From the NCBI GenBank assembly GCA_902615625.1, contig CACMPM010000006.1, positions 10,173-74,172 on the forward strand: a stretch of 64,000 bases of DNA, in the 5' to 3' direction. Positions 4,949 through 51,220 of this stretch are shown here, piece by piece (position 1 is the first letter of the stretch; each line of letters starts with the position of its first letter). The notes under the pieces are model-generated. The model worked only from the letters and a program-made list of their open reading frames with translations, was not told where the DNA came from and made no database searches. The DNA is from an uncultured Alphaproteobacteria bacterium (GTDB taxonomy: Bacteria > Pseudomonadota > Alphaproteobacteria > HIMB59 > GCA-002718135). A program made the position numbers and the translations under genes.

Positions 4949-6142
4949 TTACTCATGTTTATAAACTATAGGTAAAACTGCAGATACAATAATCATAATT
5001 GAGCTAATTAAAAAGATTGCTACGATTCCAAAACCCCAATCTATTGCATATCCAAAAATTACAGGAGATAACGCACTTGCAAATACTCCGACTCCATGAA
5101 GTAATGCCTTCGCAGTACCAATACTTTTTACTCCATAAATTTCTGCCCAAAGAGAGCCCATAAAGGGAGCAGATAAGCCAAGGTTAAAACCAAAAAGTGA
5201 CATATAAATTACAAATGCAAAATAATTATTAAAAAAGAAGAGAATAAAAACACTGATAAGTAAAGGTGCTAAAACAAATGGTATTGCTCTTTTAGTATTT
5301 ATTTTGTCAATCAAAGGACCACCAATTATCAATCCAATAATTGAACACAAACCAAATATTAAATATCCATCTCCAAGCATTTCAATTGACCATCCTTTAG
5401 AGTCAAAAATAAAAATCTGATGAAAAATTAAACCAGTTCCAATAAATGGGGAACTTAAAGCTAAAGGAAAATAAATGAAAAAAATTCTATCAGTGAGGAT
5501 TTGAGTAATAGTCCAGTGCTTGTGTACTTGTTGATTTTTTATTTTTTTTAGAAGAGTCAAATCTCTTTTCTTTTGATCAAAAAGTAAAATAGACATTAAA
5601 GGTATTAACAAAAGCAAGCTTAAAGCTGAATAAAACCATATACTTTTGAAATCTAAAAAAGTTTGTAAACTAACCACTAATTTAGGTATAAGCATTATTC
5701 CTAACATTCCCCCTAAAGTAGCTACAGATATTGCCTTACCCCTATCAACAGAAAAATATCTCGCCATAGATGTAGAACCTGCATGTGTCATTGCACCCTG
5801 CCCAAAAAATCTCAGTAAAAATAGAATTATAAAAAGATGAATAATATTATCAAAAATAAAATTAAAACCAATGCATGCTAATGCTAAACCAATTATTATT
5901 AAAGTGGAATAAATTCTTAATTCAATTTTATCTATTAGCTTAGCAAAATTAATAAATAAAAAGGAACTAACAAGTGTAGCTACGGCATATACAAATCCAA
6001 ATTGACCATCAGTTAAATTATAAAAATTACGAATATCTTCATTGAATAGCGCGATATAGAAAGTTTGCCCGTAACTTCCAAAAAATACTATTACAAAGCC
6101 ATAAATTAATAGATAAGGATCATGAAAAAAAAATCTTTTCAT
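4949..6142 (-). CDS. Major facilitator superfamily transporter
   Basis: 397 aa with about 12 hydrophobic helices and a basic central loop (QKKRDLTLLKKIKNQQVHKH). Confidence 0.8.
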   Translation of the reverse strand: MKRFFFHDPYLLIYGFVIVFFGSYGQTFYIALFNEDIRNFYNLTDGQFGFVYAVATLVSSFLFINFAKLIDKIELRIYSTLIIIGLALACIGFNFIFDNIIHLFIILFLLRFFGQGAMTHAGSTSMARYFSVDRGKAISVATLGGMLGIMLIPKLVVSLQTFLDFKSIWFYSALSLLLLIPLMSILLFDQKKRDLTLLKKIKNQQVHKHWTITQILTDRIFFIYFPLALSSPFIGTGLIFHQIFIFDSKGWSIEMLGDGYLIFGLCSIIGLIIGGPLIDKINTKRAIPFVLAPLLISVFILFFFNNYFAFVIYMSLFGFNLGLSAPFMGSLWAEIYGVKSIGTAKALLHGVGVFASALSPVIFGYAIDWGFGIVAIFLISSIMIIVSAVLPIVYKHE

Positions 6143-6148
6143 ATATAC

Positions 6149-6820
6149 TCAAAGGATTTCTTTTATACTATTTAAAAGTTTCACCATTTTATTTTGATTT
6201 ATTCTTCCTGTATTTACATTTCTTGGGCTTGGGTGATAACTGCCAATTAATAATTTATTATCTGGCAAGATATTTTTTGTGCCATGTGAAAAAATAAAGT
6301 CTTTATTTTTTATTTCATAGTATTGTTTATAATAATTTAAACACGCATCATAACCAATTTTTCCAAGGGCAACTATAATGCTTACATTTTTTAAATAACT
6401 TATTTCTTCGTTAAAGTAATTAAAACAAGTTTTTAATTCTTTAGAGGTAGGTTTATCTTCTGGTGGAACACACTTAAGGGCAGTAGTTAAATACATATTT
6501 TTTAATACTAAACCATCATTTTTGTTTGTAGAGTTAGGTTGATTTGCAAATCCAGTTTTATATAAACAAGAAAATAAAAAATCTGCAGATTTATCACCTG
6601 TAAAAACACGACCTGTTCTATTGCCACCGTGAGCAGCAGGTGCAAGACCTACCATTAATAATTTTGCTTTTTGATCACCATATCCAGTAATTGGCTTACC
6701 CCAATATATTTGATCGATGTATTGTTTTCTTTTTTCCTTTGCAATTTTTTCACGGAAATTAACTAAACGTTCACACTTAGTACAATGAGTTATAGTTTTA
6801 TTTAAATTACTTAATGTCAT
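6149..6820 (-). CDS. Uracil-DNA glycosylase superfamily protein (family 4/5 type)
   Basis: N-terminal CTKCERL and the motif GLAPAAHGGNRTGRVFTGD, characteristic of family-5 (UdgB-like) and family-4 UDGs. C-terminal HPSPRN motif. Confidence 0.85.
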   Translation of the reverse strand: MTLSNLNKTITHCTKCERLVNFREKIAKEKRKQYIDQIYWGKPITGYGDQKAKLLMVGLAPAAHGGNRTGRVFTGDKSADFLFSCLYKTGFANQPNSTNKNDGLVLKNMYLTTALKCVPPEDKPTSKELKTCFNYFNEEISYLKNVSIIVALGKIGYDACLNYYKQYYEIKNKDFIFSHGTKNILPDNKLLIGSYHPSPRNVNTGRINQNKMVKLLNSIKEIL

Positions 6821-6850
6821 TTGGAAGATATATATCTATATTACAGCTAA

Positions 6851-7414
6851 GTGATTAATGAAAGAGCTAAAGCGATCTTAGAATTTTGTTTTATCAAAAC
6901 TCAACTTGAACAATGGTTTCAAAAAAGTGAAAAATTTGACAAAATTTTGAAGAATAATTTTATGACTGATTATATGAAAGCGATAAATAATGAATATGAT
7001 AGTTGGTCTAATAATCCCGAAGAATGTGTTGCACTAATTATGTTGCTTGATCAATTATCAAGGAATTTTTTTAGAAATAGTTCAAAAGCGTATGGTCAAG
7101 ATGCTAAGTGCATATCAATAGTAAGAAATGCAATAAGTAAAAGATTTGTAGAAAAATTAAATGATGACAAAATTCATTTTTTATTATTACCTTTAATTCA
7201 TAGTGAAAATATGGATGATCATATTCTTGGACATAAACTAGTTGATCAATACTTAAATAAACATGCAGAATTCGATAATATAAAAAAAGTTTGGAATTAT
7301 CATACTGTAGCGATTAAAAAGTTTGGAAGATATCCTCATAGAAATAAGATATTAAAGAGAGAAAGCACAATAGAAGAAATAGATTTCTTAAAACAACCTA
7401 ATTCTTCTTGGTAG
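6851..7414 (+). CDS. DUF924 family protein
   Basis: 187 aa. The C-terminal FGRYPHRNKILKRESTIEEIDFL matches the hallmark (R/Y)PHRN..LGR.ST.EE..FL motif of DUF924. GTG start. Confidence 0.8.
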   Translation: MINERAKAILEFCFIKTQLEQWFQKSEKFDKILKNNFMTDYMKAINNEYDSWSNNPEECVALIMLLDQLSRNFFRNSSKAYGQDAKCISIVRNAISKRFVEKLNDDKIHFLLLPLIHSENMDDHILGHKLVDQYLNKHAEFDNIKKVWNYHTVAIKKFGRYPHRNKILKRESTIEEIDFLKQPNSSW

Positions 7415-7423
7415 TTGTTTAAA

Positions 7424-8263
7424 TTATTTTTGTTCTACTCCAGTTAGTGCACTAACAAATTGTTTCTGAAACATATAAATAAATACTAAGGGAAGAAATC
7501 CTGCAATTGAGGATGCAGCAAATTGCTGATTCCATATCATTTCATATTCAGTTGAAAATCTTCCAAGTGTAACTTGAATAAGATGGAGTTCAGGTGAAGG
7601 TGCTGCTATTAAGGGCCAAAGGTAAGATTCCCATTGAAAGACAAATAGAAGTAATCCAGCACCAAGAGTGACTGGTACTGAAAGAGGAAGACATATTCTC
7701 CAAAATACACCAAACCAACTTAATCCATCAACTCTTGCCGCCTCAATAAGCTCTTTTGGAATACCTAAAAAAAATTGTCGATATAAGAAAATAATTAATC
7801 CATTTGCTAACATAGGAATTATTAATGCATAGAAAGTATCAAACCATCCTATTTGCCTCATCATTTTAAACAAAGGAATTGCAATTGCATCCGCTGGTAC
7901 TGCAAAAGATAGAAGAACAAAGCCAAAAATTATATTATCACCTTTAAATCTAAATTGTGCGAATGCAAACCCGGCCATGGAGTTAATTAATAAACCACCA
8001 GCAACAGAGGTTATAGAAACAAAAAAAGTGTTTAACATAGATCGACCAAAATCATTTTCAAAAATTGCAAAATATGAATCTAATGAAAATCCTGGAAGGA
8101 ATGCTTTATGGCTTATAGGAGCAAGATCTCTAAAAATTTGAGAGTTACTTTTAAATGAAGCTGCTACTCCCCACCAAAAAGGGAGAATAGTTATAATTAA
8201 TCCAATAAATATAATTAAGTACCATAAATAAACAGACCATTGTCTTTTAAAATGCATTATCAT
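7424..8263 (-). CDS. Carbohydrate-type (CUT1) ABC transporter permease
   Basis: 279 aa, 6 TM helices, EAA loop EAARVDGLSWFGVFWRICLP. ATGA overlap with the upstream permease. Confidence 0.9.
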   Translation of the reverse strand: MIMHFKRQWSVYLWYLIIFIGLIITILPFWWGVAASFKSNSQIFRDLAPISHKAFLPGFSLDSYFAIFENDFGRSMLNTFFVSITSVAGGLLINSMAGFAFAQFRFKGDNIIFGFVLLSFAVPADAIAIPLFKMMRQIGWFDTFYALIIPMLANGLIIFLYRQFFLGIPKELIEAARVDGLSWFGVFWRICLPLSVPVTLGAGLLLFVFQWESYLWPLIAAPSPELHLIQVTLGRFSTEYEMIWNQQFAASSIAGFLPLVFIYMFQKQFVSALTGVEQK

Positions 8264-9153
8264 TTGACTTTTATTCCTTCATTTTTTTCACTTAAAAATA
8301 ATAGCTGAAGACCTATAACTATAAGAGTTATAACAGTTAGAATAGTTATGATTGAAAGAGATCTTCCCCAATCTTGATAATAAAATCCACTTCTGTAACC
8401 TTCATAAATTAAAACATTAGTTGATTGTAATGGACCACCTTTAGTTAAAATAATCATGGGCACCATTAAGACAAAATTTGCTGCTGTATCTGCTACGAAG
8501 ACAAAAAGTATTGTTCTTTTTAATTGTGGGATCGTAACATATCTAAATTTTTGAAAAGGTGTTGCACCATCAATCTCTGCAGCCTCGTAGTATTGTTTAG
8601 GAATGTCTTCCAGTCCTGCCAATAAGAACAGCATCCAAAACGCCACACCTTTCCAAGTAGCAATTGCAATTATGCACCATAAGGCTTGATTTTCACTAAC
8701 CAAGAAAGGTTGTGGAGGAATTCCAAAAACTCCAATTAGACCATTAATTAATCCTTGGTTTGGATCTAACATTAGACCCCAGATAATTGTAGCGATAGGA
8801 AGTGCTATCCCAATTGGTAATAGATAGAGTGATCTAATAATTCTAATAAATTTTGATTTCCTCATCAATAATAATGCTAATCCCAATGACATAGCTATTT
8901 GAAGAGGGTTAATAATAATTGTTAAAAAAGCAGTTATTTCTAGAGATTTCCAAAATATTTTATCGTCAAATAAATATTGATAATTTTCAAACCAAACAAA
9001 AATTCTTTTTTCAGCACCACCACTAAAGCTTGTGTAGATAAGGCTTTCCCAGAAGCCAATAAAAATAGGGTAAAGTTTAAAAGCAATAGTTCCAATAAGA
9101 GCTGGTGCTAAAAACAGGTATGGAACCATCCATTGTCTTTTAAAAAAATTCAT
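8260..9153 (-). CDS. Carbohydrate-type (CUT1) ABC transporter permease
   Basis: 297 aa with EAA loop YEAAEIDGATPFQKFRYVTIP. MalF/UgpA-like topology. Confidence 0.9.
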   Translation of the reverse strand: MNFFKRQWMVPYLFLAPALIGTIAFKLYPIFIGFWESLIYTSFSGGAEKRIFVWFENYQYLFDDKIFWKSLEITAFLTIIINPLQIAMSLGLALLLMRKSKFIRIIRSLYLLPIGIALPIATIIWGLMLDPNQGLINGLIGVFGIPPQPFLVSENQALWCIIAIATWKGVAFWMLFLLAGLEDIPKQYYEAAEIDGATPFQKFRYVTIPQLKRTILFVFVADTAANFVLMVPMIILTKGGPLQSTNVLIYEGYRSGFYYQDWGRSLSIITILTVITLIVIGLQLLFLSEKNEGIKVK

Positions 9154-9159
9154 ACTTTA

Positions 9160-9194
9160 AGATAAAAGAAATCACGCGGTAAAAACCGCGTGAT
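9160..9194 (-). terminator. Intercistronic hairpin plus U-rich tract between the binding-protein gene and the permease genes (attenuator / mRNA 3'-end stabiliser)
   Basis: The minus-strand RNA reads AUCACGCGG-UUUUUA-CCGCGUGAU (9-bp GC-rich stem, 9194-9171) followed by UUCUUUUAUCUU. Confidence 0.5.
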
Positions 9195-9204
9195 AAAATA
9201 TACA

Positions 9205-10464
9205 TTACTTATAACGTCTCATAGAAGATTCAATTCTAGATTCAGCATCTGCTAAAACAGAAGCTGGATCACCACCATTTCTTATATCTTCAAAACTAGT
9301 GTTAACTATTTCTTCAAACTCTAAGAAACCAGGTGTTCTTCCTCTAGTAGCGCAATGATTTGCTGACTCATATGTAGCTAAGTTCATAACAATTCCAGGG
9401 AAGTTGTTGAATTTTGGATCCTCAGCAACATGAAGTATTGCAGAGTTATGTGCTGGTAAAGAATTATGTTCTTCAACATAATGAATTGCTACTTCTGGGC
9501 TTGCAGTTAAATATCTAACAAGCTTAGCAGCATCATCTTTTTGTTTTGAATAATTCCAAACACCTATGTGCCAACTGTTACAGCCAGTAACAACTTTTCC
9601 GCCTTCAAAATAAGGATGTAGAGCTACACCATAATTAAGATCTGTATCAGCCCATCTTCCATTATTCCAAGATCCACCAACAAATATTCCAATTTTACCT
9701 AAACCAAATAACTCATGAGTTTGATCAGGTCCTACTCCTTTTGGTGAAATATTAGATGTGTTGTGAATGTCATAATAAAACTGACCAGCTTTCATCCATC
9801 CATCATTTGTTAAACATCCCTTAACAGATAGTCCACCCTCACAAACTCCAGATCCGCCACCAGCAGATTCAGGTAGTGCTTGTAACTGATAATATCTACT
9901 AATTTGATCAAAAATAAATCCATGGATACCATTTGCTTCATCAGTTATTTTTTTTGCACAATCAACTATTTCCTCCCAAGTTACTCTTTCTGCTTCAATC
10001 ATTGAAGGCTCAGCGCAACCTGCTTTAGCGAGTAAATCTTTATTATAATAAGTTAGCTGACCAGAGTTATTTAGAGGAGGAGCATACATTTCTCCATTCC
10101 ATGAAGCTGCAGCGATACCAGCAGGTGCAAATATTGCATTAACACTAGTGTCTGCAAAATATTGATCCATTGGACCTATCATACCTCTTACTGCATAAGA
10201 TGGAACTAAAGGTGCATCAACAAATATTACATCAACATCATCAGCTTGTGCATTGCCTCTTACTTCAATAGTTGCCAGTAAATCTCTAAATGGAAATGTT
10301 TGGATATTTACCTCAATGCCTGTTTCTTTTTCAAACGCTTCAACAAAAGGTGTAAGAGGTTCCTCTGCCCACGTTCCAATAAGAAAATTAATTTCAGCTT
10401 TTGCACTAGTAACTATGTTACTAAATAAAAATATAGTGCATAGGCTTGCTAATATTTTTTTCAT
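9205..10464 (-). CDS. ABC transporter periplasmic substrate-binding protein, family 1 (sugar-type)
   Basis: 419 aa. Signal peptide MKKILASLCTIFLFSNIVTSAKA. Family-1 SBP-like sequence. First gene of the SBP-permease-permease unit. Confidence 0.9.
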   Translation of the reverse strand: MKKILASLCTIFLFSNIVTSAKAEINFLIGTWAEEPLTPFVEAFEKETGIEVNIQTFPFRDLLATIEVRGNAQADDVDVIFVDAPLVPSYAVRGMIGPMDQYFADTSVNAIFAPAGIAAASWNGEMYAPPLNNSGQLTYYNKDLLAKAGCAEPSMIEAERVTWEEIVDCAKKITDEANGIHGFIFDQISRYYQLQALPESAGGGSGVCEGGLSVKGCLTNDGWMKAGQFYYDIHNTSNISPKGVGPDQTHELFGLGKIGIFVGGSWNNGRWADTDLNYGVALHPYFEGGKVVTGCNSWHIGVWNYSKQKDDAAKLVRYLTASPEVAIHYVEEHNSLPAHNSAILHVAEDPKFNNFPGIVMNLATYESANHCATRGRTPGFLEFEEIVNTSFEDIRNGGDPASVLADAESRIESSMRRYK

Positions 10465-10607
10465 TTTATCCTCCCAGATAATTTCTTAATAGATAACATC
10501 ATAAAACTGGGAATTTTAGAAGGAAAAAAGAAAAATATTAAGAATATTTTATAATTCTAGGAAAAATACTAATATTAATAATTAATAATTACTGATACAA
10601 ATTAAGT

Positions 10608-11552
10608 ATGGGGCATTTTGAAAAATCATTCTACCACGAAAGAGATGACACTAATATTTTGAAGTTACTTAAGCCAAGAAAAGGCAAAGTAAGAGCCGTT
10701 TTAGATACAGACACTTATAATGAAATAGACGATCAGTTTGCACTTGTGCAAATGATGCTTTCACCGGATAGAATTAAAGTTGAAGCTATATATCCAGCTC
10801 CCTTCTCAATGAATGATAGATCAGATCATCCAGGTAAAGGTATGGAATTAAGCTATGATGAAATACTAAGATGCCTTGAAAGAATTAATATATCACCGGA
10901 AGGATTAGTCCATAAAGGTGTAACGGGGTACATTGGTGCTAAAAAGGAATCCATAGATGCACCTGCGGTTGATGACTTAATCAATAAAGCTAATGCAGGT
11001 AGTAAAGAAGATCCACTCTATGTAATTGCCATAGGAGCAATTAGTAATGTGTCTTCAGCCCTATTAAAAGCTCCAGAGATAAAAGATAAAATTGTTGTTG
11101 TTTGGCTTGGTGGTAATGCTTTGTATTGGCCTCATTCCTATGATTATAATTTAAAACAAGATGTAGGTGGAACTCAAGTTTTATTTGATTGTGGTGTACC
11201 TCTTGTAATGGTTCCATGTGCAGGCGTTACTACACATCTAACTTCTACTGTACCAGAAGTTGAGAAGTATATTGAGCCTCATGGTGAAATAGGAAAGTTT
11301 TTAGCAATGCGATTTAAAGAGTATAGTGATGATCATAAATGTTGGTCAAAAGAATTATGGGATATGGCAGCAGTAGCTTGGGTTTTAGATGAAAAATTGA
11401 CTCCAACCAATCTAATTCCTTCTCCTGTGCTATCTGATAACATGACTTGGAGTGTTGATCAAAGAAGACATCCAATTAAAATTGTATCTATGTTAAACAG
11501 AGATGCAATTTTAAAAGATTTTGTGGAGAAGTTAGAAAAATTTAATAGCTAA
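10608..11552 (+). CDS. Nucleoside hydrolase-like protein (IUNH family, variant Asp cluster)
   Basis: 314 aa. The N-terminal Asp cluster VLDTDTYNEIDDQFAL resembles the DxDxxxDD Ca/ribose-binding motif of inosine-uridine-preferring nucleoside hydrolases, but with longer spacing. Confidence 0.75.
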   Translation: MGHFEKSFYHERDDTNILKLLKPRKGKVRAVLDTDTYNEIDDQFALVQMMLSPDRIKVEAIYPAPFSMNDRSDHPGKGMELSYDEILRCLERINISPEGLVHKGVTGYIGAKKESIDAPAVDDLINKANAGSKEDPLYVIAIGAISNVSSALLKAPEIKDKIVVVWLGGNALYWPHSYDYNLKQDVGGTQVLFDCGVPLVMVPCAGVTTHLTSTVPEVEKYIEPHGEIGKFLAMRFKEYSDDHKCWSKELWDMAAVAWVLDEKLTPTNLIPSPVLSDNMTWSVDQRRHPIKIVSMLNRDAILKDFVEKLEKFNS

Positions 11553-12827
11553 TTATAATTTTACTTTCATATTTTCATTGATCTTTGCTGCTTTTATTAA
11601 ATCATTAATAGATTTGAAAGAATTTGTGTTCTTCAGCATTTCAATTGCAAGACTAGATGCTTTATATTCACAGTTTGCTCTAACTTTTGTATTTTCTATC
11701 CATTCAAAATCTATGTTGTGAGCAAAACCATAGATTCTTCGAATTATTTTAGCGCCTGCGTATGAAATAGTTTCCTCAAAAAGATTTTGCATATATATTT
11801 TTTTTTCTAAAATCATTTTTTTGCTATTTTTTTTAAAAAGTACTTTGGGATATGCATCACCATAATTTTCAGTTTCCCACAATTTTAAAAATTTCTTCTC
11901 AAATTTAATCCAAATAGTTTTAATTATTTCAAGTAACCATTTCTTATATTTTTTTCTTTCTCCAAATTTTTTTTCGTGCCCAGTTTGGGAGAAAAAACTC
12001 ATTAATAGATTTGCAATTAGTGCACCAGTGTCAAATCCCATTGGACCATAAAAAGCAAATTCTGGATCAATTACCTTTGTGTCTTTTGTTGTAACCATAA
12101 TTGAACCCGTATGAAGATCTCCATGCAAAAGAGCATCAGTGTTTTTCATAAATTTCAATTTTAAATGACTTATAATAATCTTTAGTTTTTCATCTTTTTC
12201 TATCTTTTTTTTCATTTTATTTAAATAAGGCTTAGTCCATCTATTGTTCTTGTTTACAGCATATGGATCAGTAAATATCAAGTCCTCTGTAATTTTACAA
12301 AGTTCAGTATTTGAAATAAATTTTGAAATTAAATTTTTTTTTGATGCTGCTGTCAAATAAAGATCAGATGTGTAAAACAACGTTTTTGCTAAGTAGGTAG
12401 AAATAGACTCAGCAAAATTATTATATTTTATTCCCTTTATTAACCCATGTCTCATAATTATATGTGGAGATAGCTTTTCCATAGTTATAGAACGTAAAAC
12501 TTCGTCATAATCGTATATTTTTGGAAAATGATTTTTTACATATTTTTTATGAGTATTAAAATACTCATACTCATAATATGAGCGTTTTAGAGTAAGGGGC
12601 CAATCTTTTAAAACTCTCAAATAAGGTAGAGGTTGTTTTAAGCAAATTGAATTATGCTTATTTTCAATGAAAAAAACTAAATTCAAATTTCCATCACCTA
12701 CTTCTTTGACCTCTAAGTTTGAAGTATTCTTAAAAAGTTTTTTTAAATTCCTTTTAGAGATGATAAATTTTTTTAATTCATTTATTTTTAATGGTTTATA
12801 TTTATTTGGTTTGAATCTGGTTACCAT
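11553..12827 (-). CDS. mtnK: 5-methylthioribose kinase
   Basis: 424 aa. EVGDGNLNLVF and LLHGDLHTGSIMV match the MtnK signatures GDGNLN and HGDLHTGS. Confidence 0.85.
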   Translation of the reverse strand: MVTRFKPNKYKPLKINELKKFIISKRNLKKLFKNTSNLEVKEVGDGNLNLVFFIENKHNSICLKQPLPYLRVLKDWPLTLKRSYYEYEYFNTHKKYVKNHFPKIYDYDEVLRSITMEKLSPHIIMRHGLIKGIKYNNFAESISTYLAKTLFYTSDLYLTAASKKNLISKFISNTELCKITEDLIFTDPYAVNKNNRWTKPYLNKMKKKIEKDEKLKIIISHLKLKFMKNTDALLHGDLHTGSIMVTTKDTKVIDPEFAFYGPMGFDTGALIANLLMSFFSQTGHEKKFGERKKYKKWLLEIIKTIWIKFEKKFLKLWETENYGDAYPKVLFKKNSKKMILEKKIYMQNLFEETISYAGAKIIRRIYGFAHNIDFEWIENTKVRANCEYKASSLAIEMLKNTNSFKSINDLIKAAKINENMKVKL

Positions 12828-12880
12828 AGTGATTTATATCAACAAAAGACTTAAAATAGAATAAATAGTAAAAATTAATA

Positions 12881-12955
12881 GGTCTCGTGGTGAAATGGAT
12901 ATCACACGTGTCTTCGGAACATGGATTTGGGGTTCGAGTCCCTACGAGACCGCCA
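12881..12955 (+). tRNA. tRNA-Arg (anticodon UCG), CCA encoded
   Basis: Hand-folded cloverleaf. Acceptor is GGTCTCG/CGAGACC, D arm GTGA/TCAC, anticodon stem CGTGT/ACATG with loop CTTCGGA (U33, anticodon TCG). T arm is TGGGG/CCCTA with loop TTCGAGT, followed by discriminator G plus CCA. It ends 1 nt before the asd stop codon. Confidence 0.9.
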
Positions 12956-12956
12956 A

Positions 12957-14000
12957 TTAAATAGTTATTTTTTCAGAGTATTTAGAAATTACTAGCTCAG
13001 CAATTTGAACAGCATTAAGTGCTGCTCCTTTTCTCAAATTATCTGAAACCACCCATAGACTTAAACCATTATCTATAGATTGATCATTTCTTATTCTGCT
13101 AATATAAACTTTATCTTCTCCTGCAATTTCTACTGGAGTCACATAACCTTCATCTTTTCGGTGATCAATTACAGAAATACCTTCAGAGTTAGATAATATT
13201 TCATTAGCTTCTTTTTCATCTAATGGTGAGTCAAACTCTATATTTAATGCTTCTGAATGACCGATAAAAACAGCCGTTCTAACACAAGTTGCAGAAACAT
13301 TAATTCCTTCGTCTAGAATTTTTTTTGTTTCATCAATCATTTTTTGCTCTTCTTCTGTATTGCCATTTTCTAAAAAAGCTCCAATGTGTGGAATGGCATT
13401 AAAAGCAATTTGTTTTGTAAACTTTTCTTTTTTTAATTCTTGGTTTGCATAAACATTTTGAGTCTGATTAAACAATTCATCCATACCTGTTTTGCCTGCC
13501 CCTGATACAGCTTGGTATGTTGATACAACAACTCTGTTGATAATTGCTTTTTCATGAAGTGGTTTTAATGCAACAACCATTTGTATTGTTGAACAGTTAG
13601 GGTTTGAAATAATATTAGTTCTGTTTTCATCATCAAAAAATTCATCAAGTGCATTAGCGTTTACTTCAGGTACGATTAAAGGAATATTTTTATGCATTCG
13701 AAAATGAGAGGTATTGTCTATAACGATACATCCTGCTTTAGCTGCTTTTGGTGCATATTCCGCAGAAATTTTACCTCCGGGTGAAAATAAACCAATATGA
13801 GCTTTTGAAAAATCAAATTCTGATAAATCTTCTACAACAATTTCTTTATCTTTAAACTCTACTTTTTTGCCTTTTGATTTTGATGATGCGAGTAAATATA
13901 AATTGTCTATTGGAAAATCCCTTTGCTCTAATATTTGAACTATTTCTGTTCCTACCGCACCTGTTGCTCCTGCTACCGCTATATTATATTTTTGAGTCAT
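12957..14000 (-). CDS. asd: Aspartate-semialdehyde dehydrogenase
   Basis: 347 aa. NAD-binding N-terminus is VAGATGAVG. The active-site region SNPNCSTIQ carries the catalytic Cys. Confidence 0.95.
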   Translation of the reverse strand: MTQKYNIAVAGATGAVGTEIVQILEQRDFPIDNLYLLASSKSKGKKVEFKDKEIVVEDLSEFDFSKAHIGLFSPGGKISAEYAPKAAKAGCIVIDNTSHFRMHKNIPLIVPEVNANALDEFFDDENRTNIISNPNCSTIQMVVALKPLHEKAIINRVVVSTYQAVSGAGKTGMDELFNQTQNVYANQELKKEKFTKQIAFNAIPHIGAFLENGNTEEEQKMIDETKKILDEGINVSATCVRTAVFIGHSEALNIEFDSPLDEKEANEILSNSEGISVIDHRKDEGYVTPVEIAGEDKVYISRIRNDQSIDNGLSLWVVSDNLRKGAALNAVQIAELVISKYSEKITI

Positions 14001-15113
14001 TTAATTCCCAGATAGAATTTTTAATTCTTCAATAACAGCATTTCCCATTTCTTGAGTAGAAATAATTTTTTCTGCTCCATCTTTAATATCAGCTGTTCTT
14101 AAACCTTTTAGTAACACATTCTGTACTGCTTTCTCAATTATTTGACTATCTTCTTGCAGATCAAAACTATATTTCAACATCATAGCAAAGCTCATGATCA
14201 TTGCTAAAGGATTTGCTTTAGATTGACCAGCTATGTCTGGTGCACTACCATGAACTGGCTCATACATTGCCGCTCTAGTTCCATTTTCTTTCACTGGTCC
14301 AAGAGCTGCTGAAGGGAGCATTCCTAAAGATCCTGTTAGCATAGCTGCAGTATCACTTAAAAGATCACCAAATAAGTTATCTGTAAGTATGACATCAAAT
14401 TGTTTTGGATAACGAACTAATTGCATTGCACAATTATCTGCGAGCATATGTTCTAAATTAACATCAGAATATTCCTTTTTGTGCAAATCTGTTACAGTTT
14501 GTTTCCAAAATAAACCTGTTTCCATTACATTAGATTTTTCTACTGATGTAACTTTATTATTACGCAACTTTGCTAAATCAAATGCCACTCGTGAAACTCT
14601 ATTGACTTCTGATGTGGTATACAGTTGAGTATCAACTGCCTTACTTTCAGTCTCACTAATTTTTGATATACCTCTTGGTTGTCCAAAATATACACCGCTT
14701 GTTAATTCTCTTATTATCAAAATATCCAATCCTTTAACAAGATCAGATTTTAAAGATGATGAATCTGAAAGAGCATCTAAAACAACCGCTGGTCTTAGAT
14801 TAGCAAAGAGATCAAGGTCTTTTCTTAATCTTAATAAGGCTGCTTCAGGTCTTTTATCTCTTTCTACATTGTCCCATTTAGCACCTCCTACCGCACCAAA
14901 TAATACTGCATCACAATTCATAGCTACTTGCATTGTTTCATCACTTATAGAATTGCCTTCTTTATCGTATGCTGTACCCCCAACTAATCTTTCAGAAATA
15001 TCAAAAGATAAAGATTTAGTTTTTTCCATCCAATCAATTATTTTTAATACCTCAGCCATAACTTCATTGCCAATGCCGTCACCAGGTAAAATTAAAATTT
15101 TTTTATTACTCAT
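14001..15113 (-). CDS. leuB: 3-isopropylmalate dehydrogenase
   Basis: 370 aa with [11 protein letters not shown] and the NLFGDLLSD motif. Follows leuCD. Confidence 0.95.
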
Positions 15114-15722: not shown

Positions 15723-17126
15723 TTATAAATCCTCTGCCGTTGCAAAAGAACCTTTGATCGCAGAGGCAGCAGCTATTGCGGGACTAACAAGATGTGTTCT
15801 ACCTTCTCTACCTTGTCTGCCTTCAAAATTTCTATTTGATGTTGATGCACATCTTTCTTGCGGTTTTAATTGATCTGGATTCATAGCTAAACACATGGAA
15901 CAACCTGGCTCTCTCCAATCAAATCCTGCTTCAATAAAAATTTTATCTAAACCTTCTTCTTCAGCCTGTTTTTTAACTAGACCTGAACCAGGAACGATCA
16001 TTGAGTCTACAGAAACTTTTTTGCCTTCTACAACTTTAGCAACTTCTCTTAAATCCTCAATTCTTCCATTAGTGCAAGAGCCAATAAACACTTTATCAAT
16101 TTTAATTTTTTGTATTTCTTGTTTGGGTTCTAAACCCATATATTCAAGAGAACGCTCCATAGCCTTTTTTCTATTTGGATTACTCTCTTCTTGAGGATTT
16201 GGTACTATACCATTTATAGCAACAACGTCTTGTGGGCTTGTGCCCCAAGTAATTTGTGGTGAAATATCTTCAGCATTAATTAAAATTTCTTCATCATATT
16301 TTGCACCCTCATCAGAAGGAAGAGATTTCCAAAATTCTACCGCTTTGTCCCAATTATCTCCTGATGGAGCGTACGGTCTACCTTTAATATATTCAAAAGT
16401 TTTTTCGTCAGGAGCGATTAAACCAGCTCTAGCACCTGCTTCAATACTCATATTACAGATTGTCATTCTTCCTTCCATAGAAAGAGAGGAAATTGCACTA
16501 CCACCATATTCAATAACATAACCAGTTCCACCAGCTGTTCCTATCTTTCCTATTATATGAAGGATAATATCTTTTGCTGTAACACCTAAGTTTAATTTAC
16601 CTTCAACAGAAATTTGCATATTCTTTGCAGGTTTTTGAATTAAGGTCTGAGTAGCTAATACATGTTCAACTTCACTTGTGCCAATACCAAAAGCTAAGGC
16701 ACCAAATGCTCCGTGTGTTGCTGTATGACTATCACCACAAACTATTGTCATACCTGGCTGAGTAATACCCTGTTCTGGTCCAACTATATGAACTATACCT
16801 TGTCTACTATCTAATAATGGAAAAAGTGTAACATCAAAATCTTTGCAATTTTTTTCTAGTGTTTCAACCTGAATTCTACTTTCTTTATTTTCTATACCTT
16901 TAGATCTATCTGAAGTTGGGACATTATGATCAGCTACAGCAAAAGTACTTTCGGGTCTTCTAACTTTACGATTATTATTTCTCAAACCTTCAAATGCTTG
17001 AGGACTTGTAACTTCATGAACAAGGTGTCTATCAATATATATAAGACAAGTTCCATCTTCTTGTCTATCGACAAGATGATGTTCCCAAATTTTATCAAAA
17101 AGAGTTTTAGGATTATTTATTGTCAT
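15723..17126 (-). CDS. leuC: 3-isopropylmalate dehydratase large subunit
   Basis: [12 protein letters not shown]-terminus and Fe-S cluster cysteines ([15 protein letters not shown]). I place the start at ATG 17126 ([14 protein letters not shown]) rather than the track's 17171. It still overlaps the end of rplS by 14 nt. Confidence 0.95.
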
Positions 17127-37090: not shown

Positions 37091-39640
37091 TTAAAGAAGT
37101 TTTTCCAAAACTGCAAAAGGAGAATTAGGGTCTCTCTTAATTTTATCTTTTTTAATTGTTTTGTTTATTTTTTTATTAGGTTTATTGTTTACTACCTGTT
37201 TTCTATACTTTTTTTTATTGGAAAGAAAGAATAGTTTCTTCTCATCAGAAATAGTTACATATTGATATCCACAAAAAATCATTATGTCTTTTAGTTGATT
37301 ACTATTACAGCCTATTGGGTTCATAAGATCAGATGATTCTAAAAATGGACCTTTTTTTAATTTTTGTCTTGCAATAAAAAAAACTTTTTCAAAAACATCT
37401 ATTCTGAATATAAAATTTTTTATATTTATGTAACCAATGGATTGCCAATAATTGTCAGGCATTTTGGTTTCAGATGTAAAAGACACTCTGCCATTTAATG
37501 GTAGCGGTAAAAATTCATCATCACTATTTTGATAATATGTTTTCCATAATATCGCACTAAGCTCTAAAGGTTTTTTCTTTAATAAATTTGGCATGAAAAA
37601 ATACTTTGCACCAATTCTTATACCTAACTTTGAAAGTTGGGTTTTGCTTTCTTGAGAAATTGTCTTTAGGGTATCTTTAAATTTTTCAATTGGGTAATTT
37701 CCAAAATTTTCAAAGCAATTAAATGCAATTGCTCTTACTTCTGAATTTATATTTTCATCTAATTTTTTGCTAAGAGGATGAAGGGTATCATTTATTTCTT
37801 TATCTAGCCATTTCTGAAGTTTTGCAGAAACCAATAATTTATTTTCTGACGATAAATATTCAGAATTTAAAGCATCAGCAATTGGCTTGTATATTGAATT
37901 GCCTTTTTTAAATTTTCCTATCGGCTCATCACCCCAGTAAATAAAAGTATCGTCTTTTATTTTAGAATTACTAATGTCACTAAGATTTATTGATTCAAAA
38001 GGTGAGTTCAAAAAATTTTCTACTTTATCATTAATCATATTTCTTACTGATTTTTTTATATTACTAATCGAAAAAAAAGATTGTGAATATATATTTTTAT
38101 CTTCAATTAGATCAAAACCTTTAATAATTCCATATTTATTCTTGTCTAGAAATATTTCATTGTTATTTTTTACAAAATTATCTTCAATATTTAGAAATTC
38201 TTTTTCTCCAATAAAAATTTTTGAGGAATAATCTATAAATTTATTTGTAAGACTTTTATGTAATTGATCAGATAATTCATTTTCTATTTTCTGTGTTATT
38301 TCTTGCCAATAGTATGTATTTTTAAGCCAGCTGTGATTATTTGAAATATATGTCCAAGTTCTGATTTGGGAAATTTTAATTGAAAGCTCAGGTATACCCC
38401 CTCCAAAGTTGTTAAGCTTACTTATCTTAGTGTTGATCCATTCTTCAGGTATAAGGTAATTATTTTTGATTAAGACTAAATAAATTTCTTTTAATAGTAA
38501 TAAGTAATTATCATTAAATAGTTTTTCAAAATCTGGAATTTGGCAAATATCCCACAGTAACTTTAAATTTTTTTTTGATTTAAGAAATTTTTGAATATCA
38601 TTGTCGTTAATTAAATTACGAAAATTAATTTCATCCAAAGCATTTTTTTTATGAATGAAATAATTATTAATTGGATATTTTTTTAATGAAGATAATAATG
38701 TTTCCGTAGAATTGAAATCTAAATCGCTATTTCTCCAATAAAATTTCTGAATATTATCAAAGTTATGGCTCTCTATTTGTTGAATGATTAATGGATCTAA
38801 ATTACCTGCTTCTTTTGTATGACTAAATGTGCCATCCTGTGTATATCTACCTGCTCTTCCAGCAATTTGACCTAATTCATTAGGAGCTAGATTTCGATTA
38901 TATCTACCATCAAATTTCTCTAGCGAAGAGAAACTCACATGATTAATATTTAAATTTAGACCCATCCCAATGGCATCTGTAGCTACAAGATAATCAACAT
39001 TTTTATTTTCATATACCTCAACTTGTGCATTTCTAGTTCTTGGACTAAGTGATCCTAATACAACCGCAGTACCACCCTTATAAGTTCTTATATTTTCTGC
39101 AATTTCATAAACTTTATTAATATTAAATGCTATTATTGCGGATCTAGGTTCAAGTTTTGAAAAATTCTGTTTCTTTAAAAAAGTAAGTTGAGAAAATCTA
39201 TTTTTTTTTTCAATAATAATATTTGGGTAAATTTTTTTTAGTATATTTTCAACATTCATTGATCCTAAAAAAATGGTTTGAAAGTTACCTTTTGAATTTA
39301 GAATTCTATCTGTAAAAATATGCCCACGTTCATAATCAGCAGCTAATTGAATTTCATCAATAATGACACAATCTACGGGAATATCATTTGGCATTGACTC
39401 AACAGTGCAGAAAAAATATTTGGCTTCTTTGGGTAATATTTTTTCCTCTCCAGTAACTAAAGCTACTTTACTTAGTCCAATTCTTTTTACTGCTTTGTCG
39501 TAATTTTCTCTGGCAAGTAACCTTAAGGGAAAACCAAATATTCCAGAAGAGTAAGAAAGTAATTTTTCAAATGCTGCATAGGTTTTACCTGTATTTGTAG
39601 GCCCAAGTATGGCTAATAGGTTTTCATCTGTATTAGACAT
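37091..39640 (-). CDS. Suv3-like superfamily-2 helicase with a long uncharacterised C-terminal region
   Basis: 849 aa. ILGPTNTGKTY (Walker A, as in SUV3 GPTNSGKTY), IIDEIQ (motif II) and the QIAGRAGR motif define a helicase core of about 330 aa. About 500 further residues have no motif I recognise. Confidence 0.8.
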   Translation of the reverse strand: MSNTDENLLAILGPTNTGKTYAAFEKLLSYSSGIFGFPLRLLARENYDKAVKRIGLSKVALVTGEEKILPKEAKYFFCTVESMPNDIPVDCVIIDEIQLAADYERGHIFTDRILNSKGNFQTIFLGSMNVENILKKIYPNIIIEKKNRFSQLTFLKKQNFSKLEPRSAIIAFNINKVYEIAENIRTYKGGTAVVLGSLSPRTRNAQVEVYENKNVDYLVATDAIGMGLNLNINHVSFSSLEKFDGRYNRNLAPNELGQIAGRAGRYTQDGTFSHTKEAGNLDPLIIQQIESHNFDNIQKFYWRNSDLDFNSTETLLSSLKKYPINNYFIHKKNALDEINFRNLINDNDIQKFLKSKKNLKLLWDICQIPDFEKLFNDNYLLLLKEIYLVLIKNNYLIPEEWINTKISKLNNFGGGIPELSIKISQIRTWTYISNNHSWLKNTYYWQEITQKIENELSDQLHKSLTNKFIDYSSKIFIGEKEFLNIEDNFVKNNNEIFLDKNKYGIIKGFDLIEDKNIYSQSFFSISNIKKSVRNMINDKVENFLNSPFESINLSDISNSKIKDDTFIYWGDEPIGKFKKGNSIYKPIADALNSEYLSSENKLLVSAKLQKWLDKEINDTLHPLSKKLDENINSEVRAIAFNCFENFGNYPIEKFKDTLKTISQESKTQLSKLGIRIGAKYFFMPNLLKKKPLELSAILWKTYYQNSDDEFLPLPLNGRVSFTSETKMPDNYWQSIGYINIKNFIFRIDVFEKVFFIARQKLKKGPFLESSDLMNPIGCNSNQLKDIMIFCGYQYVTISDEKKLFFLSNKKKYRKQVVNNKPNKKINKTIKKDKIKRDPNSPFAVLEKLL

Positions 39641-42888: not shown

Positions 42889-43494
42889 ATGTTAATTGTT
42901 AAGGATTTGTCGGTACAAAGATTAGATAAAGCAATATTTGAAAATATTAGCTTATCTCTTTCACCTAGAAATATTACAATTTTAAAAGGGAAAAATGGAT
43001 CAGGCAAAACTACCTTACTAAAAGCAATTTTGAATATTATAGAGCCCTCTTTTGGATCAATATATTGGAAAGGAAAATTGTTAAAAAAAAATCTATATGA
43101 TTTCTATAATCATGTTACTTATATTCCTGACACAACAACAAGTTTAAAAAAATTAACCATCAGAGATAATATAAATATTTGGAAAAAATTTTTTATTTCA
43201 GATATTAATAATGCACAAATTGAAACAGCATTAAAAACCTTAAAACTGGATAATAATTTAAATAAAAAAGTTGGAACATTATCTTTTGGTGAAACAAAAA
43301 AATTAGAATTTTTAAGATTAATTATAGAAAACAAAAATGTTTGGATTTTAGATGAGCCTTTTTCAAATCTGGATGACGATTCAATTGAATTGATGAAACA
43401 AACTTTTGAAGATCATTGTGCTAATGAAGGTTCTATAATTTTTAGCTCACATCAAAATCCAGGAATTTATGTAACAGAAGAAATGGAATTATAA
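42889..43494 (+). CDS. ccmA: Heme exporter ATP-binding protein CcmA
   Basis: 201 aa with GKNGSGKTTL Walker A, the LSFGETKK signature and ILDEP Walker B. First gene of the ccm cluster. Confidence 0.9.
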   Translation: MLIVKDLSVQRLDKAIFENISLSLSPRNITILKGKNGSGKTTLLKAILNIIEPSFGSIYWKGKLLKKNLYDFYNHVTYIPDTTTSLKKLTIRDNINIWKKFFISDINNAQIETALKTLKLDNNLNKKVGTLSFGETKKLEFLRLIIENKNVWILDEPFSNLDDDSIELMKQTFEDHCANEGSIIFSSHQNPGIYVTEEMEL

Positions 43495-50476: not shown

Positions 50477-51220
50477 TTATTTGTTCCCTTTTTTATGCTT
50501 TATATATTTGTTAATAAAGTTATCATGATCCATTACGTCTAAATCTTGTTTTATTGACCAATTACCAAGTATTTTTTCTTCATAATTGGAATGCTCTTGA
50601 GTATAATTTTTTAAAAACATAAACCGTGATCTAGTTGCATCAAGAGCATGACAATCAGTAAATGCAGGTAAACTATATATTAAGTCGTAAATATAATAGC
50701 TAGTATATTGAGTAAAAAAAATATCTAATAATTTTTGGTTTTTTTTATTTAGAAGAAGATTATTAAAACCAATAAACCCCGATTCTGTATAATAGCCAAT
50801 CCTATCATAAATTGATAACAAAGTATTTTCAGGTAAACATTTATTAAACCATGTATTAGGAATCTTACTAAGAAATTCAGTATCTGCATCAATATAGAAA
50901 AATTGTTCGGAGTATTTTCTTGCATCACTCTGAGCAAAAACCTTATAAGAAAATCTTACAGGATCTAATAAATAAGATACTTTTGAATTAATTTTAGACT
51001 TTTCTTTATTTCTCTCAATAAATTTGTAACATAAAGGCTGTTCTGTAAATAAGTTTAGATAAACTATATTTTTATTTTTAGGATATAAGTCTACATTATC
51101 TTCTACATAACAATAAAGTTTGAGACTTTGATCTGTTTTTATAAAACTATCAATAAGTTTGTTTGCGTATTTTTCAAATAGTGAAAAATTAAAAGTTGTA
51201 ACAAAAATTTTTTTAATCAT
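50477..51220 (-). CDS. Hypothetical protein, possibly a GT-A-fold (DxD) glycosyltransferase
   Basis: 247 aa. The only recognisable feature is YIDADTEF (DxD-like) after a Rossmann-like N-terminus. The functional call is weak. Confidence 0.4.
   Translation of the reverse strand: MIKKIFVTTFNFSLFEKYANKLIDSFIKTDQSLKLYCYVEDNVDLYPKNKNIVYLNLFTEQPLCYKFIERNKEKSKINSKVSYLLDPVRFSYKVFAQSDARKYSEQFFYIDADTEFLSKIPNTWFNKCLPENTLLSIYDRIGYYTESGFIGFNNLLLNKKNQKLLDIFFTQYTSYYIYDLIYSLPAFTDCHALDATRSRFMFLKNYTQEHSNYEEKILGNWSIKQDLDVMDHDNFINKYIKHKKGNK

Follow-up and report, generated by a model that had tools for sequence, protein, structure and literature searches.

The DNA analyzed here, hereafter the window, is a 64,000-nucleotide (64-kb) stretch of contig CACMPM010000006.1 from an uncultured Alphaproteobacteria bacterium. 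Between positions 7424 and 12827 it carries a gene islet that joins a sugar-type ATP-binding cassette (ABC) importer, a protein of the N-ribohydrolase fold, and the methylthioribose kinase MtnK. An earlier note, made from the sequence alone, had described this region as an importer lacking its ATPase, clustered with a nucleoside hydrolase-like gene and mtnK, and had read it as a possible uptake and salvage route for reduced sulfur. The gene set itself is as described. Five intact open reading frames (ORFs) lie within 7424-12827, and their translations contain each of the motifs that had been quoted, namely the EAA loops of the permeases, DTDTYNEIDD in the hydrolase, and GDGNLN and HGDLHTGS in the kinase. 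The islet and the features that border it are as follows.

6851-7414, plus strand: DUF924 gene (PF06041), the islet boundary opposite the tRNA gene
7424-8263, minus strand: ABC permease 2 (UgpE/MalG/GlcU-like), BPD_transp_1 (PF00528), best partial matches GlcU and UgpE, with an EAA loop IEAARVDGLSWFGVFWRICLP
8260-9153, minus strand: ABC permease 1 (UgpA/MalF-like), BPD_transp_1 (PF00528), best partial match UgpA at 126 bits, with an EAA loop YEAAEIDGATPFQKFRYVTIP
9171-9194, minus strand: GC-rich hairpin with a 10-bp stem, in the gap between the binding-protein gene and permease 1, a terminator-like match ATCACGCGGTTTTTACCGCGTGAT
9205-10464, minus strand: family-1 (CUT1-type) solute-binding protein, SBP_bac_8 (PF13416) at 107.9 bits and SBP_bac_1 (PF01547) at 104.4 bits, with an N-terminal signal peptide
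10465-10607, no strand: divergent intergenic region, 143 bp and AT-rich as read from the sequence, the shared promoter region of importer operon and hydrolase gene
10608-11552, plus strand: N-ribohydrolase-fold protein, IU_nuc_hydro (PF01156) at 61.7 bits against a cut-off of 34.2
11553-12827, minus strand: MtnK, TIGR01767 at 477 bits against a cut-off of 275
12881-12955, plus strand: tRNA-Arg(TCG), landmark at one edge of the variable islet, found by ARAGORN and Rfam

Judged by its sequence, the kinase is unambiguously MtnK, with matches to PDB entry 2pyw (deposited as "Uncharacterized protein") at E = 5e-110 and to Bacillus subtilis MtnK (2olc) at E = 4e-67. The importer has both parts required of a CUT1-type system, a family-1 binding protein and two MalF/MalG-type permeases with EAA loops. 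The permease genes overlap by 4 nt, and in this strain the operon ends with permease 2. A signal peptide is present in the binding protein but not in the hydrolase. No NCBIfam equivalog model reaches its cut-off on the binding protein, whose nearest relatives in a PDB sequence search are remote sugar binders (best E = 2e-23) that do not indicate the ligand. The missing ATPase gene is indeed missing: tblastn finds no MalK/UgpC-type ATPase in the 64 kb, where the sole ABC ATPase is CcmA (42889-43494, beside ccmB and ccmC), a weak match to the MalK-type query, and none occurs in any SAR11 version of the locus examined.

Forms of the islet among SAR11-type strains

The nearest database relatives are sequences named Pelagibacteraceae or marine single-cell genomes, which makes assignment of the window to SAR11 reasonable. 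In the window, the islet is set among core genes, with sdhCD, zapE, an MFS gene, the UDG gene, and DUF924 on one flank and tRNA-Arg(TCG), asd, leuBDC, rplS, trmD, and ffh on the other. We compared the interval between tRNA-Arg/asd and UDG across loci retrieved through the hydrolase, the binding protein, and MtnA, and numbered these L001 onward. The order mtnK, hydrolase, binding protein-permease-permease is found in 12 other SAR11-type loci, while four further loci have the hydrolase with the importer only or with mtnK only. Such a recurrent gene order shows that the arrangement is not due to chance. Absence of synteny in relatives had been named in the earlier note as grounds for rejecting a link among the three units; the synteny in many SAR11 relatives instead supports a functional connection.

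In the no-islet form (L004-L008 and L098), DUF924 is followed by the hydrolase gene, tRNA-Arg, and then a GNAT or DUF218 gene; importer and mtnK are both absent. The short form, found in the window and in L018, L021, L022, L023, and L028, runs mtnK, hydrolase, binding protein-permease-permease, and then DUF924; L012, L017, and L025 fit the same description but are cut by contig ends. The long form is the short form with mtnA and an aldolase/short-chain dehydrogenase gene added after permease 2. It is found in L015, L016, L020, L095, and L097, in each of which mtnA starts 0-3 nt after permease 2, and in L024 and L096 as far as those contigs extend. The two added genes follow the last permease with gaps of 0-9 nt or with overlaps. 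In a version of the long form without adjacent mtnK (L009-L011), the hydrolase gene is bordered on its far side by genes for a MacAB-like efflux system.

Long-form MtnA passes the equivalog model TIGR00512 (393-407 bits against 279 for the two copies scored, from L009 and L015). The neighboring gene encodes a fusion of Aldolase_II and short-chain dehydrogenase domains, 669-673 residues long, that passes NF006192, "bifunctional aldolase/short-chain dehydrogenase" (786-822 bits against 639). Two SAR11-like MtnA queries led to two distinct loci, both of them the long form of this cluster, and the mtnA copies of loci retrieved via the binding protein likewise lie in it. Neither mtnA nor the fusion gene was found by tblastn in the 64-kb window. 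The window strain has the short form only, and the kinase is the sole step at its locus of the dihydroxyacetone phosphate (DHAP) shunt discussed below. This absence from the whole 64 kb, like the role of the hydrolase as a backbone gene that some SAR11 lineages carry without importer and without mtnK, goes beyond what the earlier note had described.

Among nine species-level representatives with readable DNA downstream of the last permease, five are without mtnA and the aldolase at the locus. The short form occurs in at least six species-level representatives at two levels of divergence (L018, L021, L022, L023, L025, and L028). Binding proteins are 99-100% identical between some long-form and short-form strains, and the window's five ORFs are 92-100% identical to their long-form counterparts. 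DUF924, separated from permease 2 in the long form by mtnA and the fusion gene, behaves differently from its surroundings. It is 71-73% identical between short and long forms (window 6851-7414, plus strand, against L016 and L020, both 16132-16692), whereas the genes around it are mostly 93-100% identical, or 83-97% in L020. For L016 and L020, permease 2 is 97% identical, UDG 93% and 86%, and the MFS gene 97% and 83%. Divergence of DUF924 beside clearly more similar neighbors points to replacement of a block by recombination, and the sequences suggest that mtnA, the aldolase gene, and DUF924 may be exchanged together as a cassette.

Of the SAR11 versions checked, all but L009 and L024, where this position falls outside the contig, keep the tRNA-Arg(TCG) gene, which lies between mtnK and asd in the window. 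It adjoins the hydrolase gene in strains without mtnK and lies beyond mtnK in strains that have it. The content of the site varies among strains in GNAT, YccF, DUF218, MacAB, mtnK, and DUF924 genes.

The hydrolase and its operon partners

A scan with the binding-protein alignment, limited to one genome per species, returned 80 loci. An orthologous hydrolase gene is adjacent in 13 of 13 loci in which the binding protein is at least 49% identical and enough flank is available. Paracoccaceae, Albidovulum, Rhizobiaceae, and metagenome contig L014 have a single operon of binding protein-permease-permease-hydrolase-ATPase, and in the three named taxa the ATPase gene directly follows the hydrolase gene. 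The Limnohabitans operon reads binding protein-permease-permease-LacI-ATPase-hydrolase-PfkB kinase, where the kinase matches ribokinase best (251 bits, below the cut-off). In Neobacillus, the order is binding protein-permease-permease-ribokinase-hydrolase (TIGR02152, 335 bits against 300), and several Paenibacillus genomes and Scopulibacillus have binding protein-permease-permease-hydrolase. On the strength of this gene order, importer and hydrolase must be viewed as a conserved functional pair across three bacterial phyla. The presence of a hydrolase gene in the transporter operon implies a riboside as cargo rather than a free sugar, and a hydrolase within a transporter operon, followed by a ribokinase, is a signature of riboside uptake, cleavage, and sugar phosphorylation.

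Some of these operons indicate where the "missing" ATPase belongs, because they hold a MalK-type ATPase gene (L013, L014, L027, L029, and L030). The ATPases of L013 and L014, for which Pfam annotation is available, have ABC_tran, OB_MalK, and TOBE_2 domains, and the binding-protein orthologs in operons of the order binding protein-permease-permease-hydrolase-ATPase are 61-69% identical. That such genes occur in Paracoccaceae, Albidovulum, Rhizobiaceae, and Limnohabitans supports the idea, already voiced in the earlier note, that the ATPase is borrowed from elsewhere: the SAR11 importer probably uses a shared MalK/UgpC-type ATPase encoded at another place in the genome.

The riboside operons of Paracoccaceae, Rhizobiaceae, Limnohabitans, and Bacillales thus share with the SAR11 islet their gene order, permeases, an orthologous binding protein (35-69% identity), and the hydrolase (44-68%). 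They differ from it in that four keep an ATPase gene, two have a ribokinase or ribokinase-like kinase, a LacI regulator occurs, the hydrolase has Glu at a position that binds the ribose 5'-OH oxygen (O5'), and mtnK, mtnA, and the aldolase gene are lacking. In SAR11, MtnK replaces the ribokinase or ribokinase-like kinase of two of these operons, and all SAR11 versions of the locus lack a ribokinase. Ribokinase phosphorylates C5, whereas MtnK acts on C1 of 5-methylthioribose (MTR) and of 5-deoxyribose. DrdK, a kinase related to MtnK, is inactive on ribose (PMC6079011).

Three other loci of this comparison deserve mention on their own account. In a Limnohabitans metagenome-assembled genome (MAG), a sulfatase-family gene lies directly downstream of the riboside operon (L029, 12698-18077), which hints that some members of the transporter-hydrolase family may act on sulfated or otherwise decorated ribosides. 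In Bradyrhizobium arachidis (L001, 9320-10927), a hydrolase of the same clade (67% identity) directly follows a HAD-family phosphatase gene and has no transporter, an arrangement that would suit a route from nucleotide to nucleoside to base. An alphaproteobacterial MAG (L068, 6432-12971) has an RpiR regulator, MtnA, a classical IU_nuc_hydro protein, a distant family-1 binding protein (38% identity), and two permeases in a row, with no mtnK or aldolase gene within 10 kb; this independent association of MtnA, hydrolase, and importer counts as weak support.

The hydrolase belongs to a large clade, in which at least 7,998 of 8,000 scored candidates have E <= 0.001; the best 120 relatives, Bradyrhizobium and Rhizobium proteins among them, are at least 64% identical. 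It has no NCBIfam equivalog and no close PDB entry. Its IU_nuc_hydro match spans residues 112-274 only, with a weak additional match to the Sde182_NH-like family PF07632. An AlphaFold2 model (pLDDT 86.5, pTM 0.89; weak at residues 1-10 and in the loop 173-180) has the N-ribohydrolase fold, with a Foldseek probability of 1.00 and TM-scores of about 0.72 to 3g5i, 1yoe, and 2mas. The relatives so found, RihA, YeiK, and IU-NH, are 16-21% identical. Residues were mapped through a HMMER alignment to RihA and the RihA structure paper (PMC2898832). The Ca ligands Asp10, Asp15, and Asp241 of RihA are kept as D33, D42, and D252, the predicted Ca ligands here, and its water-holding Asn166 as N181. These aspartates and this Asn, together with the fold and a cytoplasmic location, are what the protein has in common with the Ca2+-dependent N-ribohydrolases of PF01156 (IU-NH, RihA/B/C, and IAG-NH). 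It differs from them, beyond the low identity, in its fingerprint, in having Trp at the His position of "HD", and in its O5' ligands. The fingerprint DTDTYNEIDD (residues 33-42) has the form DxDxxxxxDD, two residues longer than DxDxxxDD, and D33, D35, D41, D42, and D252 are invariant across the clade. RihA Asn158 and Glu164, which bind O5', align with Tyr173 and Asp179, so that the Asn/Glu pair is absent.

Residue 179 follows gene context. Among 36 loci of known context, it is Asp in all 16 that have mtnK and/or mtnA, and Glu in all 20 that have neither; the latter comprise islet-free SAR11, Bradyrhizobium, and all operons linked to an ATPase or a ribokinase. In a neighbor-joining tree, a Glu-type SAR11 lineage groups with the window-type Asp lineage, nested inside the Asp types, with 88% bootstrap. 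This nesting means that residue 179 changed state at least twice, each time with the gene context. A single origin of Asp179, which a first tree had seemed to allow, was rejected, as a single Asp clade receives 10% bootstrap.

No MtnN/Pfs or MtnP was found among the 43 window ORFs scanned with Pfam and NCBIfam models or in the gene annotation of the retrieved loci, and the N-ribohydrolase-fold gene occupies the position expected for the nucleosidase of the cluster. The proposal that this protein stands in for MtnN can be called plausible because both 5'-OH ligands of the classical nucleoside hydrolases are replaced.

Cargo and purpose of the islet

MtnK, MtnA, and a class-II aldolase together constitute the DHAP shunt, also known as 5-deoxyribose disposal, which converts 5'-methylthioadenosine (MTA) as well as 5'-deoxyadenosine to adenine, DHAP, and a C2 aldehyde (PMC6079011, PMC10986504, PMC12632272). 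By placing MtnA and a class-II aldolase beside MtnK, the long form presents the parts list of this pathway; in the window the kinase (MtnK/DrdK) is present. As known from Escherichia coli ATCC 25922, Bacillus thuringiensis, and Rhodospirillum rubrum, the shunt consists of MtnN or MtnP, MtnK/DrdK, MtnA/DrdI, and Ald2/DrdA. The SAR11 cluster agrees with it in kinase and isomerase families, in the class-II aldolase that comes next in the long form, and in being clustered with a transporter: the E. coli operon is mtnK-mtnA-ald2-permease, and some 5-deoxyribose (drd) clusters include sugar transporters (PMC6079011). The known system likewise uses external MTA, 5'-deoxyadenosine, and 5-deoxyribose. 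The SAR11 cluster differs in that its putative nucleosidase is an N-ribohydrolase-fold protein rather than MtnN/Pfs or MtnP, its transporter is a binding protein-dependent CUT1-type ABC system without an ATPase gene of its own, its aldolase is fused to a short-chain dehydrogenase, and the window strain has the kinase step only.

We propose, with about even confidence, that the islet scavenges 5'-deoxy-ribonucleosides, chiefly MTA and/or 5'-deoxyadenosine, which are by-products of S-adenosylmethionine use. The periplasmic family-1 binding protein would capture a 5'-modified riboside, most likely one of these two, and the permeases would import it, driven by a MalK/UgpC-type ATPase whose gene lies elsewhere in the genome. 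In the cytoplasm, the N-ribohydrolase-fold enzyme, in the role of MtnN/Pfs, would split the nucleoside into adenine and MTR or 5-deoxyribose, and MtnK would phosphorylate the released sugar at C1. In long-form strains, MtnA would then isomerize the 1-phosphate, and the aldolase of the fusion would cleave the resulting ketose 1-phosphate to DHAP and a C2 aldehyde; the aldehyde, by analogy with RhaEW, would be oxidized to acetate or (methylthio)acetate with formation of NADH. The long-form shunt would thus yield carbon, energy, and purine. In the window strain, the route past the 1-phosphate would be either encoded elsewhere or missing.

RhaEW, the bifunctional L-rhamnulose-1-phosphate aldolase/L-lactaldehyde dehydrogenase, has the same two-domain architecture as the long-form fusion, whose dehydrogenase part resembles RhaW, and its chemistry is analogous to that proposed here: a deoxy-ketose 1-phosphate gives DHAP and an aldehyde that the RhaW domain oxidizes (PMC3870299). 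The SAR11 fusion nevertheless falls below the RhaEW-type cut-offs (TIGR02632, 390-412 bits against 567.75; NF006189, 367-401 bits against 634) and fits instead NF006192, a sister model of unknown specificity. Its context is mtn rather than rha genes, and it is absent from the window.

No bacterial group of the surface ocean is more abundant than SAR11, whose growth depends on importable small molecules. To our knowledge, every cell makes MTA and 5'-deoxyadenosine, and both are released by picocyanobacteria. Release of MTA by Prochlorococcus (PMC11698098), together with the growth on such compounds of E. coli strains with a transporter-linked DHAP shunt (PMC10986504), makes the ecology of the proposed scavenging plausible. 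More tentatively, we suggest that a nucleosidase for MTA and 5'-deoxyadenosine was recruited from the N-ribohydrolase fold and works with a CUT1-type nucleoside importer, and that part of SAR11 may thereby feed on S-adenosylmethionine by-products from cyanobacteria and other plankton, gaining adenine, DHAP, reducing power, and perhaps reduced sulfur, with short and long forms marking different niches.

Several observations weigh against uptake and cleavage of 5'-deoxy-ribonucleosides. All characterized N-ribohydrolases require the 5'-OH (PMC8910321), so that an enzyme acting on 5'-deoxy substrates would be the first of its fold to do so. The change from Glu to Asp at residue 179 is conservative and sits in the poorly modeled loop 173-180 (pLDDT < 50). 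Orthologous hydrolases at 63-68% identity lie beside ribokinase, which makes ordinary ribosides the probable default of the family. The site is a hot spot of gene content beside a tRNA gene, and some of the adjacency could therefore be incidental. With mtnA and the aldolase gene absent at the window locus, finally, the MtnK product has no visible fate there, which is where every functional interpretation of the window is weakest.

The logic of uptake, hydrolysis, and phosphorylation set out in the earlier note is supported by these results, while the purpose it had assigned, salvage of reduced sulfur, is not. SAR11 needs reduced sulfur, MtnK is the entry enzyme of methionine salvage, and the window's short form does not fix the downstream route. 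MTA or MTR might therefore be imported, cleaved and phosphorylated as required, and passed to methionine through MtnA, MtnB, MtnC, and MtnD encoded elsewhere, or its sulfur might be recovered as methanethiol from the by-product of the DHAP shunt. R. rubrum and R. palustris do recover sulfur via the shunt, through further steps (PMC10986504). However, the genes that complete the cluster in the long form are MtnA and the aldolase/dehydrogenase fusion, not MtnB, MtnC, or MtnD, and no mtnB, mtnC (or mtnW/mtnX), or mtnD lies beside the cluster in the scanned part of the window or in any fetched SAR11 locus. The DHAP shunt sends the methylthio group into its C2 by-product, and in E. coli it supplies carbon but does not allow growth with MTA as the source of sulfur (PMC10986504); the known release of methanethiol from 2-methylthioethanol is described for anaerobic growth. 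Sulfur salvage by the islet is possible but unsupported, and we consider it unlikely as the main route; the purpose is most likely carbon and adenine.

It is similarly improbable that the importer and hydrolase handle ordinary ribosides or nucleosides, with MtnK (and MtnA and the aldolase) recycling only the cell's own MTR or 5-deoxyribose and placed here by an insertion hot spot. This explanation draws on the coupling of hydrolase orthologs (63-68% identity) and binding-protein orthologs (49-69%) to ribokinase or a MalK-type ATPase, on the solitary occurrence of the hydrolase in Bradyrhizobium and, at this chromosomal site, in other SAR11 lineages, and on the GNAT, YccF, DUF218, MacAB, and DUF924 variation at the site. 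It does not account well for the tight packing of mtnA and the fusion gene onto the end of the permease operon, for the lack of a ribokinase throughout SAR11 versions, for the switch of the O5'-ligand residue with gene context, or for the fact that mtnK directly adjoins the gene of the hydrolase in three sub-lineages of SAR11 with hydrolases 79-100% identical.

The usual ligands of family-1 binding proteins are about the size of a disaccharide, and a hydrolase gene embedded in the transporter operon in several phyla is sensible only if the cargo needs hydrolysis. Both points stand against a third explanation, in which the importer takes free MTR or 5-deoxyribose excreted by other microbes and delivers it to MtnK, while the hydrolase serves a separate, endogenous recycling of nucleosides. 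Both sugars are excreted by many bacteria (PMC10986504, PMC3228920), known 5-deoxyribose clusters include sugar transporters (PMC6079011), and an ABC transporter for MTR, MtrABC, has been predicted in Bacillus cereus and Enterobacteria (PMC3228920). Like the SAR11 importer, MtrABC is tied to mtnK and methionine-salvage genes, but it has a single permease gene, its own ATPase gene, a free sugar as presumed cargo, and no associated hydrolase (PMC3228920). We judge import of free sugars to be rather more doubtful still.

Least of all does the window's islet look like a decaying remnant whose importer, hydrolase, and kinase ceased to function once mtnA and the aldolase were lost: the 64 kb lack mtnA, aldolase, and MalK-type ATPase, and both SAR11-like MtnA queries landed in the long form, but all five ORFs are intact and 92-100% identical to those of long-form strains, and recurrence of the short form with intact genes points to maintenance by selection and argues against simple decay, which makes this explanation very unlikely.

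Systems of the proposed kind are already known, namely the DHAP shunt with a transporter and the predicted MTR transporters (PMC3228920). New are its parts here, the N-ribohydrolase-fold protein in its proposed MtnN role, the CUT1-type importer without its own ATPase gene, and the aldolase-dehydrogenase fusion. Our search of the searchable literature on SAR11 with methylthioribose, methylthioadenosine, or deoxyadenosine found no description of the cluster, which is not proof that it is unpublished, and none was found by a term search of the survey of SAR11 binding proteins by Clifton et al. (2024). Braakman et al. describe a purine ABC transporter that comes with an ATPase of its own and is not the same system. 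If 5'-deoxy-ribonucleosides are indeed the cargo, an islet for high-affinity uptake and the DHAP shunt would constitute a new cross-feeding link for carbon, purine nitrogen, and possibly sulfur. A function would be provided for a large uncharacterized hydrolase clade of thousands of sequences, and the N-ribohydrolase fold and CUT1 transporters would both be extended to a new substrate class. We know of no earlier CUT1-type ABC importer for nucleosides. With its no-islet, short, and long forms, the polymorphism provides near-identical strains in which niche partitioning can be studied as a natural experiment.

Other features of the window

GC content by gene is 0.36 for the binding protein, 0.35 for the hydrolase, 0.32 for the permeases, and 0.26 for MtnK, against 0.29 for the window, and shows no clear sign of recent foreign origin. 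The hairpin at 9171-9194 stands out as GC-rich against a 29% GC genome. It is possibly an attenuator or an mRNA stabilizer that raises binding-protein output, and may set the ratio of binding protein to permeases.

An Rfam search at permissive threshold over 6000-14500 found no riboswitch, for S-adenosylmethionine, S-adenosylhomocysteine, or otherwise, the tRNA being the sole match. No Rfam family matched the divergent intergenic region 10465-10607, whose conservation is limited to the closest strains, and strain comparison revealed no shared operator motif in it. Because sigma-70-like promoter matches fall below chance expectation (19 against 28 expected), no promoter is called at the locus.

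Elsewhere in the window, a 247-residue ORF between folD and argG (50477-51220, minus strand) has no Pfam match at E <= 1e-5. An 849-residue protein (37091-39640, minus strand) has a Suv3-type DEXQ-box helicase domain and Helicase_C confined to its first 270 or so residues, the remaining 580 or so being without a Pfam match. Ribosomal protein L19 (17113-17718, minus strand) is 201 residues long: after the L19 domain at residues 3-117 comes a Glu-, Lys-, and Ala-rich tail of about 85 residues, and the protein is just as long, at 197-201 residues, in related SAR11 loci.

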